From Elainellaceae cyanobacterium (GTDB lineage: Bacteria > Cyanobacteriota > Cyanobacteriia > CAZCXK01), in the NCBI GenBank assembly GCA_051117555.1, contig JBNPEG010000016.1:67315-83090 (forward strand): 15,776 bases of DNA. The letters run 5' to 3'. Shown here one piece after another: positions 10,653 to 15,776 of this stretch (position 1 is its first letter; every line of letters starts with the position of its first letter). Below the pieces are notes generated by a model. That model saw only the letters and a list, made by a program, of their open reading frames with translations. It made no database searches and had not been told where the DNA came from. The translations under genes were made by a program, and so were the position numbers.

Positions 10653-12080
10653 ATGAGCGTTGATTCCCTGTCGCTAGCAACATCCCTAGATGATATTCAT
10701 CTCACTCTCTCACCTGAACCGTTAGAAACTAGAGAGGAGATTGAGGCATTCTATCGGGATGAGCTGAACCAGGTGAGAGGTGGAGATAAGACTCAGCGAC
10801 TGAAATTAGGTCTGAGACGGGCAATCCAGGGAAAGTATTTCTATAAAGCCTGTTTGATGGGTCATCAGGGAGTCGGAAAGTCTACAGAATTGACTCGCTT
10901 AATTAATGACGAAGCGGTGCAACAGCAGTTTTGCGCCGTTCGCTTCAGCGTGACCACCGACCTCGATCCAGGGAATTTCAATCCTCTTGATGTGCTGCTG
11001 TTGATGATGGCTGAAGTGGTTCAACACACGGCTCAGCCGATTGACCAGGGAGGCGCTGGACAAGTTCCAGATCAGGCGCGTTTGCAGGAAGTATGGAATT
11101 GGTTTGCTAGCGAGAAAACGCTACGGGAGCAAGCGACGGAAGGAGTCTTGGGTGTTGAAGCCGGTGCCGGAGTGCAGGGCGATTCGCTTTTGGGAAAAGT
11201 GCTGGGATTGTTTGCCTCACTCAAGAGCGAATTGAGGTTTGCTTCGACACGCAAAAAAGAAATTGTTGAGTACCGCTTGTCTCGGCTGAATACGCTGATT
11301 GAAGTGGCCAATCGTATCCTGATAGACTGTAACCAAAAATTGCAGCAAGCGCGAGGATGTCAGTGGCTCTTTATCGGCGAGGACTTTGATAAAGCGGGCA
11401 TTCCGTCCGATGCCATTGAGAACCTCTTCATTACCTATGCCAATATTTTTAGTGAATTAGAGACCCATTTAATTTTCAACTTACCGATCGGGCTCTATAA
11501 CTCTTCCCCGGCGATTCGATTGTCCTTTCCGCCAGAACGGAGTCTGGTTATCCCAGATACTCCGGTGTTTCACCCCGACCACAGCCCAAATGAGCTGGGG
11601 CGAAAGGCGGTACGTTCTGTATTGGAAGCTCGGATATCAACCAATTTGTTTGAGCCGGGTCAGATGGAACGGCTGATTGTGGCGTCTGGGGGCAATTTGA
11701 GAGACTTGTTTGCGCTGGTGAACTATGCGGCAGATACGGCGACGTTGCGGAACGAGACCCGTCAAATTAATCAAGATGATGCGAACAGTGCGATTCGCAA
11801 TTTACGCAGTGAATATGAGCGGCGGTTGGGCCAAAATCCCTATGACAAAGACGAAATCACCTATGAGAAAAAAGCTGAACTGCTGAAGCGGATCTACGAT
11901 GGAGACAAGGAGGCCCAAATTCCGAACCCGGTACTCTATGCATTGCTAAACGATCGGGCTGTGCAGGAGTTTAACGGCGAACGATGGTTTGGAGTGCATC
12001 CACTCGTGGTTGATTTGCTCAATGTCCAGGGTCGAATTCCATTTGCGCCAAGCGGGGGAGTACCCGGTGGCACTCGATGA
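10653..12080 (+). CDS. P-loop ATPase (AAA+/STAND-related ATP-binding protein)
   Basis: 475 aa. Walker A GHQGVGKS (10860-10883), Walker B-like FIGEDFDK (11370-11393), ASGGNLRDL helical-domain motif and a C-terminal WFGVHP motif. Confidence 0.88.
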   Translation: MSVDSLSLATSLDDIHLTLSPEPLETREEIEAFYRDELNQVRGGDKTQRLKLGLRRAIQGKYFYKACLMGHQGVGKSTELTRLINDEAVQQQFCAVRFSVTTDLDPGNFNPLDVLLLMMAEVVQHTAQPIDQGGAGQVPDQARLQEVWNWFASEKTLREQATEGVLGVEAGAGVQGDSLLGKVLGLFASLKSELRFASTRKKEIVEYRLSRLNTLIEVANRILIDCNQKLQQARGCQWLFIGEDFDKAGIPSDAIENLFITYANIFSELETHLIFNLPIGLYNSSPAIRLSFPPERSLVIPDTPVFHPDHSPNELGRKAVRSVLEARISTNLFEPGQMERLIVASGGNLRDLFALVNYAADTATLRNETRQINQDDANSAIRNLRSEYERRLGQNPYDKDEITYEKKAELLKRIYDGDKEAQIPNPVLYALLNDRAVQEFNGERWFGVHPLVVDLLNVQGRIPFAPSGGVPGGTR

Positions 12081-14739
12081 ACCTAAAACACGTGTTGACG
12101 GTAGTGTCAGTGATGTCTATGCGCGACTGTTGTTGTGGTGTCGCCGTCGTCGCCGGGGCTTGGCTCGGGTTGAGTTCTCGTCTGAGTTTGCGCGCCAACG
12201 CGTTGTCGAACAACTCTATCGGGATTTGAGGGAACTAGATATCCCAATTCATACGCTCGAACTGCCCAAGTGGAGTTCCCCGAGGCAGGTGCTTCATTAC
12301 CTGCTAGAGTCCTTAGACCAGATTGAACCGGGAGTGGTTTCCATCAGCGGGTTCGCAACCGCTTTTGATAGAGACATTCCGCTGACCGATGCGCTGAGGG
12401 TTATTAACTTTAACCGGGAAAACCTTGTCAAGCCCCACCTCTCTCAAATCTGGTGGATGACGCGGAGCTTTACAGATAAAGCGCTCCATGCCATGCCCGA
12501 TTTGAATTCCTGGTTTACATTGCGGTTGTTTCTCACCGAAAGCATCCGGTCAGACAGGCAGATCTTCCGCGATCAGGAACCCAATCGAACTCTAGCCATC
12601 CCCATCGAGCAGGATGCAGAGCGTAGCGGGAATTTGGCAACAATCCACAACCTGCCGAGGGAGATTTCTCCGCGGTTTGTCGGGCGCGAAGCAGAACTCG
12701 TTCAGTTACACGCGCAACTCCAGCAATCCGGCAAAATGGCGATCGCGGCTATTGCTGGCATGGGCGGCATTGGGAAAACGGAGCTAGCCCTGCACTATGC
12801 GACAGCCTATCAAGCCGACTATCGGGGAGGGATTTGCTGGATCAGAGCACGGGATATGGATATCGGGACGCAAGTGATTGCCTTTGCTCAAGATCGGTTG
12901 AGTCTTTCCCCGCCAGATGGGCTAGACATGGTGCAGCAGACCCACTGGTGTTGGCAACACTGGCCCCGTCCCGATCAGGACGTGCTGCTGATTGTGGATG
13001 ATGTCAACGACTATGAGCGGATTGTGCCCTATTTGCCGAGTTCCAACCGCTTTAAGGTCTTGATCACCACCCGTCTCCAGACTCTCGGGACCGCCGTTAC
13101 CCTATTCAGCTTAGATTTGCTATCCCCAGAGGCAGCTCAGGCGTTGCTCGCCCTACTCATTGGGGAAGAGCGCGTATCGGCAGAGCCTGAGATGGCACAT
13201 GAACTCTGTGCTTGGTTGGGCTACCTGCCCCTCGGCATCGAGTTGATCGGCACCGATCTCCAGCGCCACCCGGATCGGTCTCTGAAAACCTTCTATCAAA
13301 CCCTGCAAGACAGACAGGCAGACTATAGCGCCACCCGACGCTTGCCGCCCGGTGTAACCGCACAGATACCCCTCGCCGTTGCCTTTGGAACCACCTGGCA
13401 AAGCCTTCCGGTCGATGCCCAACGGCTCGCCTGTCTGTTGAGTTGTTTTGCCCTTGCCCCTATCCCCTGGGCGCTCGTCGACGGTTGTTTCCCCAACCAA
13501 GACCCTGATGAGTTAACGACAATCCGTGACTCAGAGTTAGTCTCTCGGAGCTTGCTTCAACAGGCCGGGGATAGCCTCTATCAACTGCACCCGCTAATCT
13601 ATCAATTTATCGGAATGCAGCGGGAGCAGAGTGAGTGGGGCGATGAGCTGAAACGGGTGTTTTGCCAAGAGATGGTGACTATTGCAAAGACGATTCCCGA
13701 AACGCCCGTGCGAACCCAAATCTTGGAACTGACTCCAGTGATTCCCCATCTTGCCGAAGCCGCAACCACCTGGCAAACCTGGCTCGCCGATGAAGACCTA
13801 ATCTGGCCCTTTCTTGGGTTAGGGCGTTTTTATGCAGGCCAAGGAGCCTATAGTGAGGCGGAACCCTGGTATGAAATGTGTCTAGAAGTAGTCAGCGATC
13901 GCCTGGGCGACGAGCATCCTTATGTGGCAACTAGCCTCAACAATCTGGCGGCACTCTACGACAATCAAGGGCGCTACAGCGAGGCCGAACCCCTTTACCA
14001 GCAGGCGCTGGCGATGAGCCAACGGCTCTTGGGCGATGAGCATCCCGATGTGGCAACTAGCCTCAACAATCTGGCGGCACTCTACGACAATCAAGGGCGC
14101 TACAGCGAGGCCGAACCCCTTTACCAGCAGGCGCTGGCGATGAGACAACGGCTCTTGGGCGACGAGCATCCCGATGTGGCAACTAGCCTCAACAATCTGG
14201 CGGCACTCTGCCGAAATCAAGGGCGCTACAGCGAGGCCGAACCCCTCTACCAGCAGGCGCTGGCGATGAGACAACGGCTCTTGGGCGATGAGCATCCCGC
14301 TGTGGCGAGTAGCCTCAACAATCTGGCGGCACTCTACGACGATCAAGGGCGCTACAGTGAGGCCGAACCCCTCTACCAGCAGGCGCTGGCGATGAGCCAA
14401 CGGCTCTTGGGCGAGGAGCATCCCGATGTGGCGCAAAGCCTCAACAATCTGGCGGCACTCTACGACAATCAAGGGCGCTACAGTGAGGCCGAACCCCTCT
14501 ACCAGCAGGCGCTGGCGATATATCAACGGCTCTTGGGCGAGGAGCATCCCAATGTGGCAACTAGCCTATGGAACCTTGGAGCACTTCGATATAACCAGGG
14601 ACGATTAGAAGAAGCACAATCACTCCTCCTGCGAGCCCTGCCTATTTATGAAGCACAACTAGGCTCTGACCATCCCAATACAAGAAATCTAAAGAGTTGG
14701 ATTGATGGGGTTCAAACAGCTTTGAGCAATTCTAAGTAA
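12067..14739 (+). CDS. NLR-like STAND protein: uncharacterised N-terminal domain + NB-ARC + TPR (42-aa kinesin-light-chain-type) repeats
   Basis: The start is reassigned from 11989 to GTG 12067 (GGGGGAG RBS 6 nt upstream, 14-nt overlap with the ATPase gene), giving 890 aa. NB-ARC motifs: HNLP..FVGRE, GMGGIGKT (12757-12780), LLIVDDV, LITTR, GYLPL, LHPLI. C-terminal LGDEHPxVAxSLNNLAxLY..QGRYSEAEPLYQQAL repeats. Confidence 0.92.
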   Translation: MALDEPKTRVDGSVSDVYARLLLWCRRRRRGLARVEFSSEFARQRVVEQLYRDLRELDIPIHTLELPKWSSPRQVLHYLLESLDQIEPGVVSISGFATAFDRDIPLTDALRVINFNRENLVKPHLSQIWWMTRSFTDKALHAMPDLNSWFTLRLFLTESIRSDRQIFRDQEPNRTLAIPIEQDAERSGNLATIHNLPREISPRFVGREAELVQLHAQLQQSGKMAIAAIAGMGGIGKTELALHYATAYQADYRGGICWIRARDMDIGTQVIAFAQDRLSLSPPDGLDMVQQTHWCWQHWPRPDQDVLLIVDDVNDYERIVPYLPSSNRFKVLITTRLQTLGTAVTLFSLDLLSPEAAQALLALLIGEERVSAEPEMAHELCAWLGYLPLGIELIGTDLQRHPDRSLKTFYQTLQDRQADYSATRRLPPGVTAQIPLAVAFGTTWQSLPVDAQRLACLLSCFALAPIPWALVDGCFPNQDPDELTTIRDSELVSRSLLQQAGDSLYQLHPLIYQFIGMQREQSEWGDELKRVFCQEMVTIAKTIPETPVRTQILELTPVIPHLAEAATTWQTWLADEDLIWPFLGLGRFYAGQGAYSEAEPWYEMCLEVVSDRLGDEHPYVATSLNNLAALYDNQGRYSEAEPLYQQALAMSQRLLGDEHPDVATSLNNLAALYDNQGRYSEAEPLYQQALAMRQRLLGDEHPDVATSLNNLAALCRNQGRYSEAEPLYQQALAMRQRLLGDEHPAVASSLNNLAALYDDQGRYSEAEPLYQQALAMSQRLLGEEHPDVAQSLNNLAALYDNQGRYSEAEPLYQQALAIYQRLLGEEHPNVATSLWNLGALRYNQGRLEEAQSLLLRALPIYEAQLGSDHPNTRNLKSWIDGVQTALSNSK
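13903..14568 (+). repeat. Intragenic tandem array of 126-bp TPR-encoding repeats (5 full units + partial sixth)
   Basis: Units start at 13903, 14029, 14155, 14281, 14407 and 14533. They are near-identical at the nucleotide level, including most synonymous sites. Confidence 0.97.
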
Positions 14740-14950: not shown

Positions 14951-15430
14951 ATGCCTTACGAAAACATTAGTGCCACGATCTCAGACGAAAGCTTGAGCGA
15001 AATCAAAGGGGCGATCGCCACGATTCGCTCACATCTGTCCTTTTTGATTAGCCTGACCCCAGACGAACGCCGCAAGCGTTTCAAGATGGGCGACAAGAGC
15101 TTGGCATTTGTCAGAAATAGCGTGACCGTTACTCAAAACAACCCAGAGGTATTGCCTGGAAACTTTAACCGTGAAGAATTTGCCAAAGATTATCAACTGA
15201 CGGTCGCGCTGACCGAGATTCTCACTCTGCTCAATCAGTTGAGCGAAGAAGTAGACGACACACTCATCGCAGTCGGCAGCGAATCGATGGCAAGCAGTCT
15301 GCTGGTCTATGACTTTGTGAAAACGGCAGCCAAACATTCTCCCGGTCTTAAGAGCGTGGCTGACCAGTTGGGCGAACGGTTTAAGTCGATTAGCGGTCGT
15401 CGCCCCAAAGCAGACGCCACGACTGTTTGA
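14951..15430 (+). CDS. Hypothetical protein, 159 aa, probably mostly alpha-helical
   Basis: Start reassigned to ATG 14951 (AAAGGAG RBS 7 nt upstream). MPYENISATIS...FLISLTPDERRKRFKMGDKSLAFV...DDTLIAVGSESM...YDFVKTAAK...LGERFK has normal protein composition and a basic C-terminal tail. No catalytic motif recognised. Confidence 0.88.
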   Translation: MPYENISATISDESLSEIKGAIATIRSHLSFLISLTPDERRKRFKMGDKSLAFVRNSVTVTQNNPEVLPGNFNREEFAKDYQLTVALTEILTLLNQLSEEVDDTLIAVGSESMASSLLVYDFVKTAAKHSPGLKSVADQLGERFKSISGRRPKADATTV

Positions 15431-15744
15431 TCCGTTTTGATATGGCGTGCGATCGAGTCAACCCCCACTCGATCACGTCCAGAGGCTCTTTAAAGAGATG
15501 CAAACACTCTCTAGACACTCTCAGAGAGTCTTTAAAGAAGTTCCAAGACTCTCTAGACAATCCCAGAGAGTCTTTAAAGAAGTTCCAAGCTTCTCTAGAC
15601 AATCCCAGAGACTCTTTAAAGAGGTTCCGAGACTCTTTAAAGAGGTTCCGAGCCTCTCTAGACATTCTCAAAGACTCTTTAAAGAGGTTCCGCGGCTCGC
15701 CAGACATTCTCAGAGACTCTTTAAAGAGATTCCAAGCTGATTGA
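15427..15744 (+). CDS. Possible heptad-repeat protein encoded by the 21-bp array (reading frame uncertain; may be non-coding)
   Basis: TTG 15427 overlaps the upstream TGA (TTGA), with an in-frame ATG at 15442. It reads RDSLKRF / QDSLDNP heptads with 3-4 hydrophobic spacing. A second + frame (15447-15740) and a - frame (15390-15707) are also open, so coding status is unresolved. Confidence 0.3.
   Translation: MIRFDMACDRVNPHSITSRGSLKRCKHSLDTLRESLKKFQDSLDNPRESLKKFQASLDNPRDSLKRFRDSLKRFRASLDILKDSLKRFRGSPDILRDSLKRFQAD
15481..15732. repeat. Array of twelve 21-bp quasi-palindromic units of two alternating types (A B A B A B A A B A B A)
   Basis: Type A consensus AGAGACTCTTTAAAGAGGTTC (7 units; palindromic core CTCTTTAAAGAG or TCTTTAAAGA). 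Type B consensus CAAGACTCTCTAGACATTCTC (5 units; core TCTAGA in four). Exact 21-bp period with no indels. Confidence 0.96.
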
Positions 15745-15776
15745 CTGACAAAAGATTCTGCATTGGGCGAGGAAAC

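Follow-up and report, generated by a model that had tools for sequence, protein, structure and literature searches.

To our knowledge, protein genes with a tandem repeat array of their own form only a handful of conserved pairs, namely plasmid centromeres and iterons, type III toxin-antitoxin loci, and CRISPR-Cas, and all of these turned out to work by distinct mechanisms. Here, we analyzed a 15,776-nucleotide (nt) stretch of DNA from an Elainellaceae cyanobacterium (hereafter the window), in which the gene for P0002, a 159-amino-acid (aa) protein, is followed by a tandem array of 21-bp units. Homolog samples, paralogs, and control counts established that the linkage between gene and array is real, directional, and old, and the two very probably form a conserved, functionally linked module. 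A full-text literature search returned no description of the pairing of this gene with a 21-bp array, which is thus undescribed as far as could be found.

The closest described systems differ in their proteins and in the length of their repeats. On the F plasmid, the sopC centromere lies behind sopB and consists of 12 tandem repeats of 43 bp. SopB, a ∼320-aa ParB-family helix-turn-helix protein that works with the SopA ATPase on the plasmid, binds an inverted repeat within each of them. Shorter repeats are found in the parC sites of R1 (11 bp) and pSK41 (20 bp) and in P1 incA, whose 19-bp iterons lie downstream of repA and are spaced by about two helical turns; ParR and omega proteins are of the ribbon-helix-helix type and Rep proteins of the winged-helix type. 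Type III toxin-antitoxin systems (ToxIN, CptIN, and TenpIN) carry tandem 34- to 45-nt RNA repeats beside a small protein gene. In these systems, the array precedes the toxin, with a terminator between them, and the toxin is an endoribonuclease of the ToxN/AbiQ type.

Linkage of the gene to a downstream 21-bp array

An earlier note on this DNA had described the gene and its array, and our recount agreed with it (Table 1). The first unit lies 50 nt past the TGA stop codon of the 159-aa gene, and 12 units of 21 bp follow one another without indels in the order ABABABAABABA (7 A and 5 B). Unit positions 7, 8, 12, 14, 16, and 21 are identical in 12 of 12 units, as had been claimed, and positions 3, 4, 9, and 11 are identical in 11 of them. 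The A core, CTCTTT/AAAGAG (the stroke marks the center of the dyad), is exact in 5 of the 7 A units and carries a single mismatch in units 3 and 5 (...AAAGAA); the B core, TCT/AGA, is present in 4 of the 5 B units, unit 11 reading GCC/AGA. For this array, Tandem Repeats Finder (TRF) gave periods of 21, 42, 63, and 105, with scores of 117 to 294, and a period of 7 was not among them. The leader between stop codon and array contains a hairpin that is kept in the copies on contigs C47 and C95 of this genome and at loci L009, L010, and L038. The C95 hairpin shows one compensatory change, from GAGT...ACTC to GAGC...GCTC.

We collected 51 homolog loci with their flanks from genome contigs and called an array when TRF reported a period of 21, 42, 63, or 84 within 900 bp of the gene. 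In this first sample, an array was present downstream at 27 of the 51 loci and upstream at 1 of 50. With the same TRF settings, arrays were called in the next 2.1 kb downstream at 2 of 47 loci and further upstream at 3 of 43. The loci without an array belong mostly to one clade, Nodosilinea and its allies, which has a strong hairpin-plus-T terminator instead. Our second sample was an even draw of 301 cyanobacterial genomes, from which two weak or partial loci were excluded. The family occurred in 21 of these genomes, at 1 to 7 copies each, and the array was downstream at 24 of 27 loci and upstream at none of the 27. As the array of L137 is that of L009, the two samples overlap. The distance from stop codon to array ranged from 16 to 390 nt.

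As a control, we used a multicopy cyanobacterial family of 94-aa proteins that was sampled like the P0002 family and has a similar layout in this genome. Downstream arrays were found at 1 of 26 control loci and short upstream arrays at 4 of 26. Because this second small-gene family lacks arrays in other genera (1/26), we took it as a control and not as a second example. The earlier note had proposed that homologs of a coupled system would keep the period while their units diverge and had named a general lack of downstream 21-bp arrays among homologs as counterevidence. The counts above bear out the former and run counter to the latter: the period was 21, 42, or 63 in all 57 arrays counted downstream across the samples, and the unit sequences diverge between lineages and between paralogs while the period stays constant. 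Clustering of the open reading frames (ORFs) around the 51 loci, with 3-kb flanks, revealed no conserved neighbor gene beyond clade-level synteny.

The linkage extends beyond the cyanobacteria. Of 401 Pseudomonadota genomes, 3 contained the family, and their 9 loci have the array downstream in 6 cases and upstream in 3. A gammaproteobacterium of the Thiosymbion type (G001) has four paralogs, all with a downstream array, and these arrays contain 10.7 to 22.7 units of four different sequences. Two downstream arrays and one upstream array were found in genome G045 and two upstream arrays in G285; 200-kb samples of both genomes contained no other 21-bp array of at least 3 copies. Of 10 metagenome loci that represent a distant subfamily, 6 are followed by an array of period 21. 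Exceptions to the period occur at two metagenome loci, L090 (22/66) and L082 (20, 2 copies).

These data bear on the possibility that there is no functional couple and that selfish or structural 21-bp repeats, such as curved DNA spread by recombination, lodge or persist behind a gene whose protein has an unrelated job, with the leader hairpin as a possible lodging site. We consider this improbable. The linkage recurs across cyanobacterial orders, two proteobacterial lineages, and the metagenome relatives with a different unit sequence each time, it is strongly one-sided in both cyanobacterial counts (upstream, 1/50 and 0/27), and the control family does not share it (1/26). Moreover, the gene-linked arrays were the sole long 21-bp arrays seen in the sampled proteobacterial genomes.

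The protein and the nature of the array

P0002 has 607 close homologs, which are labeled "hypothetical protein" or carry sporadic automatic names. The family comprises at least 3456 clusters (50% identity, E ≤ 1e-3), nearly all of stand-alone proteins of 150 to 170 aa. P0002 hit neither a Pfam nor an NCBIfam family at E ≤ 0.1, PHROGs gave nothing below an E value of 0.39 and a sequence-profile search of the PDB nothing below 0.2, and PADLOC returned no match. P0002 had no match to PF05635, fragments of which are present elsewhere in the genome. By tblastn, the family was detected in 1 of 72,556 plasmid records and in none of 50,697 phage records. Look-alikes in the ESM Atlas were unnamed clusters, some of them in Bacteroidota, and one was auto-named "putative methyl-accepting chemotaxis protein."

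The AlphaFold2 model of P0002 (predicted local distance difference test [pLDDT], 94.2; predicted template modeling score [pTM], 0.75) contains helices only, with no strand and a 53-residue central helix, in keeping with the small helical gene described previously. With this model, Foldseek found no PDB structure at E ≤ 1e-3, and the best match from a wide VIA-align search (Z = 6.2) was to generic helical hairpins, under the noise level stated by the tool for helical models. An intertwined, symmetric homodimer was predicted, with ipSAE (interaction prediction score from aligned errors) values of 0.80, 0.81, and 0.79 versus 0.00 for the best of 3 controls; contacts agreed by at least 92% between runs, and the partner pLDDT was at least 83. 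Of proteins solved as pairs, 20 of 30 reach the ipSAE mark, as does 1 of 23 whose structures are single chains; for P0002, whose run used our own alignment, these counts are only rough. The prediction supports dimerization of P0002. Basic motifs, ERRK.FKMG.KS and GERFK, and a K/R-rich tail are conserved in the family alignments.

The arrays are noncoding. All six frames contain stops in 9 of 29 arrays, and the remaining open frames lie on differing strands between loci, with no strand or frame consistently open. The earlier suggestion that the array codes for a fast-evolving heptad-repeat peptide (21 bp being 7 codons) is therefore hardly credible. It could draw on the window, where 3 of 6 frames are open and frame +1 (...DSLKRFR/ASLDILK...) has hydrophobic spacing of the a/d type, and on weak coiled-coil matches, all of which fall below the cutoffs of their families. 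However, ∼71% of random 7-codon units are free of stops by chance, (61/64)^7, the start codon is not conserved, and some loci are open on the + strand only and others on the − strand only. Rfam returned no family near its gathering score, giving only subthreshold noise from eukaryotic microRNA and small nucleolar RNA families. Since the units abut without spacers and only two unit types alternate, the array is not CRISPR-like, a point on which the earlier reading was right.

Many lineages, across orders, share the core CTC-N6-GAG(T)(C/G)TT, often extended to ACTCGT-NN-ACGAGT. Dyad arms of at least 4 bp were present in 27 of 40 consensus units (shuffles average 3.4), and the dyad reached the 5% level in 6 of 40 arrays, the window array among them. 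Thus, the dyad that had been claimed for both unit types holds for the window, where the cores are mostly exact, but is not class-wide. Palindromes with a central gap of 0 to 2 bp occur in the window, in the C23 array, and at L075, L077, and L126 to L128. Mismatches in the arms lack a G-U bias on either strand (71 versus 60 of 810 cells), and no strand composition skew was found in the arrays. The motif GAGT(C/G)TT reads in the sense direction in 21 arrays and in the antisense direction in 9, the latter including the window's clade.

Of the three models put forward in the earlier note, phased sites for a dimeric protein fit best. The module consists of a gene for a protein of ∼160 aa, predicted to be all-helical, and a noncoding tandem array of ∼4 to 23 units of 21 bp, almost always placed a few hundred bases downstream. 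A P0002 dimer would recognize the partly palindromic core of the unit on duplex DNA, the cognate core being CTCTTT/AAAGAG in the window and ACTC-N6-GAGT or ACTCGT-NN-ACGAGT in many relatives. Since 21 bp amounts to two helical turns, successive dimers would lie on one face of the helix, and neighboring dimers could form a cooperative nucleoprotein filament of 250 to 480 bp beside their own gene. Paralogs with differing units would represent separate cognate pairs, and orphan arrays would serve as additional tracts for binding or be what is left of decayed modules. Such a filament might act in autoregulation or titration, in local silencing or insulation, or in anchoring. We favor binding to duplex DNA because the period stays fixed at two turns of the helix, because palindromes with 0- to 2-bp centers cannot form full hairpins and suit a dimer on a duplex, and because the arrays are strand neutral: a G-U bias is lacking, one clade has the motif flipped, and arrays lie upstream in distant homologs. 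In-phase binding of dimers to double-stranded DNA is nonetheless a mechanism that we infer tentatively, as one that could well be right.

An RNA-level module is a serious alternative. Gene and array would then form one transcript, whose 21-nt units are hairpins or single-stranded motifs bound by the protein or cut by it to unit length; the array would be a 3′ untranslated region, or a 5′ one if upstream, and would act as a type III toxin-antitoxin-like RNA or as a protein sponge. Such a transcript would account for the position of the array on the downstream side of the gene at nearly all loci, 16 to 390 nt past the stop codon. At this locus, the + strand lacks a terminator-like site from the gene to the array, its only one lying directly after the array (positions 479 to 491 of C137). 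A terminator scan of 63 arrays pointed in no clear direction, with a site before the array in 17 cases, inside it in 26, and after it in 24. In several Nostocales-type arrays, every unit resembles a mini hairpin with a T-run behind it. An arm spacing of 0 to 7 fits hairpins better than a rigid operator, the leader hairpin has its compensatory change, and the patchy, multicopy distribution of the family (21/301 cyanobacterial genomes, 1 to 7 copies) and its paralog-specific repeats are like those of type III systems. On the other hand, the stems are mostly of 3 to 5 bp, palindromes with 0- to 2-nt centers cannot pair in full, and the G-U bias is lacking on both strands (71 versus 60). The common motif is inverted relative to the gene in one clade, some distant homologs have their arrays upstream, and orphan arrays occupy intergenic regions of all orientation classes. 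Besides the absence of an Rfam match near the gathering score, neither a ToxN/AbiQ-like family nor a PADLOC entry matched the protein, and an antitoxin located downstream of its toxin would be produced in deficit. On balance, we judge the RNA-level module rather unlikely.

Several points weigh against a dimer bound in phase to duplex DNA. The array is missing in the whole Nodosilinea clade and its allies and in the Thiodictyon plasmid copy. The dyad is not general, being significant in 6 of 40 arrays, and its arms stand 0 to 7 bp apart, a range that would be unusual for a single conserved dimer geometry. No DNA-binding fold was recognized, Foldseek giving no match and VIA-align only helical hairpins (best Z, 6.2). 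As the only terminator-like site on the + strand here lies after the array, the array is probably cotranscribed, which is compatible with an RNA role too. A fixed period is trivially passed on by unit duplication. Finally, this genome contains 126 period-21 clusters, with 82 arrays of at least 84 bp outside large ORFs, but only 5 paralogs of the gene.

Array copies and other 21-bp repeats in the genome

The A/B core motif clusters on nine contigs (C175, C22, C47, C95, C135, C132, C144, C29, and C137). Since C29, at whose end the window stops, and C137 are one locus, the genome has eight loci of this array. On C47, a paralog of the TPR gene of the window is followed by the 3′-terminal 49 codons of the P0002 gene (96% identical), its leader, and the array, which identifies this copy as a segmental duplicate with a truncated gene. 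The C95 copy retains 23 codons of the gene, and the C175 copy retains the final few codons and the leader only. Bare arrays adjoin unrelated genes on C22, C135, C132, and C144. The earlier note had held that dispersal of the repeat independently of the gene would speak against a coupled system. Such dispersal was in part observed, with the array at 7 further loci, 5 of them having no more than the final few codons of the gene and 4 of these 5 being bare, but the cross-phylum linkage of gene and array stands despite these orphan copies. In G001, an orphan copy of one Thiosymbion array (L061, G001:C1544:1065-1390) is 81% identical to it; a small gene ∼110 bp downstream of that copy resembles a HigA/XRE-type antitoxin on reading of its translation alone. 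Two Thiosymbion paralogs of the same genome, L069 and L075, have differing arrays followed by a common sequence, a GC-rich hairpin and then ...CTTGTCCCGACGGAGGAGGG, so the module may have a conserved 3′ end.

Five paralogs of the P0002 gene are present in the genome. The one on C23 is followed by an array of its own, whose dyad is TTCAC-CT-GTGAA. Those on C248 and C200 have upstream arrays, and that on C61 has none; the upstream array on C248 may belong to a neighboring copy of the control family (∼94 to 95 aa).

A genome-wide search for tandem repeats gave the 126 period-21 clusters but only 11 of period 20 and 9 of period 22, a sharp excess. Of 93 period-21 arrays of at least 84 bp, 82 are those outside large ORFs. 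The period-21 arrays fall into about a dozen multilocus unit families, mostly far from the P0002 paralogs (examples in Table 1), and ∼70 further noncoding 21-bp arrays lie elsewhere in the genome besides the seven orphan copies. Relative to all intergenic gaps, the orientation classes of these other arrays showed no strong bias. It is here that repeats lodged behind a gene without a functional couple find their support: most of the clusters are distant from the paralogs, the seven orphan copies of the window array adjoin unrelated housekeeping-type genes, units are gained and lost quickly between close relatives, the arrays are themselves targets of insertions, and a second small-gene family in this genus has a matching gene-hairpin-array layout. 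The selfish-repeat reading explains the orphans and the 126 clusters but not the one-sided linkage across phyla.

Contrary to the earlier note, the array does not end at 15732. An insertion of 240 bp, resembling a miniature inverted-repeat transposable element (MITE), interrupts it at 15737. The final 127 bases of the window are the start of C137, on which the array resumes beyond the insertion for ∼3.4 more units. The end sequence of the insertion matches at least 10 other contigs at 91 to 100%. At L009, a close relative with 97% protein identity, the flanks match and an unbroken array of ∼17 units shows another unit order. Since the L009 and window arrays differ in the order and number of their units, units turn over quickly. 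A MITE-like element with CTGATTGACTGACAAAA ends and a target duplication of 7 to 9 bp has inserted into or beside three arrays of this family, with related insertions at those on C132 and C22 (Table 1). The element copy inside the window array is a composite that carries an internal duplication and a short piece of array.

Constant period, free sequence, and rapid unit turnover would also be expected if the protein served as a cis-acting "ruler" of 21 bp in tandem duplication or in the homogenization of repeats, arrays arising beside its gene and occasionally elsewhere. The arrays on either side of distant homologs and the many unrelated 21-bp arrays in paralog-rich genomes such as this one would agree with such an array-maker. 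However, no enzymatic fold or motif was recognized, and array families are dispersed as copies. The core motif is common to related lineages, which argues that arrays descend from one another and are not born from local sequence. We know of no precedent for a protein that makes or maintains 21-bp arrays in this way, and we find the idea very improbable.

Upstream of the gene, the window encodes a 916-aa protein with NB-ARC and TPR domains (STAND/NLR-like), which had been read as a hint of a defense role. A paralog of its gene precedes the truncated module on C47. Because this NB-ARC/TPR paralog was merely duplicated along with the truncated module, and because the neighbor is not conserved over the 51 loci, we rejected the link to defense; PADLOC likewise gave no match. 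The 210-bp gap 5′ of the P0002 gene contains a heptamer tandem repeat, TCCAAAA (5.3 copies), similar to short tandemly repeated repetitive (STRR) sequences, and a similar AAATCCA run precedes the truncated gene copy on C47.

Two further small-gene families flank 21-bp arrays in this genome. The second family (∼94 to 95 aa), from which our control was taken, has a layout of stop codon, hairpin, and 21-bp array like that at the P0002 gene. It shares the motif ...LRHILLGS...LHVLxYxEQxxWS..., has no Pfam or NCBIfam match, and is highly multicopy, with members in 53 of 201 cyanobacterial genomes and at least 25 matches in one of them; its locus on C111 is a copied 3′ fragment of the gene with the array. 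Members of the third family (119 aa; MPRxKRSS...GKDSxEYxxAGGxRxSERKRP) have a 21-bp array 100 to 206 bp upstream at 4 of 4 loci. Kinship of P0002 with this third family was rejected (hhalign probability, 2%).

Table 1. Positions of the features in the window and of related features on other contigs of the genome
Feature	Position	Strand	Basis or remark
Gene for P0002, a predicted all-helical 159-aa protein of an uncharacterized widespread family	14951..15430	+	ORF translation
Leader hairpin, GTGCGATCGAGT / loop / ACTCGATCAC, no T-run after it	15447..15476	+	Sequence reading; inside the 50-nt leader from stop codon to array
Noncoding array, 12 × 21 bp; A core CTCTTTAAAGAG, B core CTCTCTAGACA	15481..15732	.	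Unit alignment and TRF
First 40 bp of the 240-bp MITE-like insertion	15737..15776	.	17-bp terminal inverted repeats CTGATTGACTGACAAAA...; target duplication TTCCAAG (15730-15736)
Places of the MITE-like element	Window 15737-15776 with C137:88-327; C132 ∼30400-30530; C22 ∼29990; C23 ∼11800-11950		
Gene for the NB-ARC and TPR protein	11989-14739	+	
126-bp TPR repeat, 5.3 copies	13904-14567		
Heptamer repeat TCCAAAA	14794-14830		
Examples of other period-21 arrays	C86:58118-58467; C144:29402-29705; C21:6558-6743; C68:4267-4962		
Loci of the second small-gene family	C86:57728-58467; C111:39416-40023; C21:6558-7314; C116:45423-46402		
Loci of the third small-gene family	C208:17146-17850; C161:11365-12191; C203:21947-22681; C99:3842-4616		

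Comparison with described gene-array systems

It is possible, if not yet probable, that these loci belong to an unrecognized class of module found across phyla, in which a helical protein with a new fold forms dimers and is firmly tied to a 21-bp array of its own that diversifies quickly. If so, a single genome would hold several orthogonal protein-array pairs (four in the Thiosymbion genome and up to 7 gene copies in Nostocales-type genomes), each a self-contained nucleoprotein or ribonucleoprotein device, for example for addiction, exclusion, or chromosome marking. The many unexplained 21-bp arrays of filamentous cyanobacteria would also gain a handle. The pairing makes a family of "hypothetical proteins" testable, as a dimer that may bind its own array as DNA or RNA, and the natural orthogonal gene-array pairs provide built-in specificity controls.

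Type III toxin-antitoxin loci resemble the locus in their small protein gene with an adjoining tandem array and in their patchy, multicopy occurrence with paralog-specific repeats. They differ in that the array here follows the gene and has 21-nt units, while the protein has no Pfam or PADLOC match and an all-helical model. The ParR/parC systems and the iterons share with it short direct repeats in whole-turn phase beside the gene for a small oligomeric binder, and unit sequences that diverge between paralogous or incompatible systems. The period of 21 in the window and in 57 of 57 downstream arrays falls within the 17- to 22-bp repeats at about two turns that characterize iterons. However, P0002 matches neither Rep nor Par families, the locus showed no motor or origin context, and the model (pLDDT, 94.2) has no strand at all, so the N-terminal strand of a ribbon-helix-helix protein such as ParR or omega would be lacking.

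The F plasmid centromere differs from this locus in its protein, in its setting, and in its period: P0002 has 159 aa, is all-helical in the model, and has no ParB domain, the locus is chromosomal, and the period is 21 and not 43. Over the 51 loci with their 3-kb flanks, no neighbor gene, and hence no ATPase of the ParA/SopA type, was conserved. The centromere-type layout itself, with inverted-repeat units just downstream of the gene, is present here, the dyad being significant in 6 of 40 arrays. As with sopC and sopB, an indel-free array of about a dozen dyad units directly follows the gene for a putative dimeric binder, and binding here, too, would be cooperative over a few hundred base pairs.

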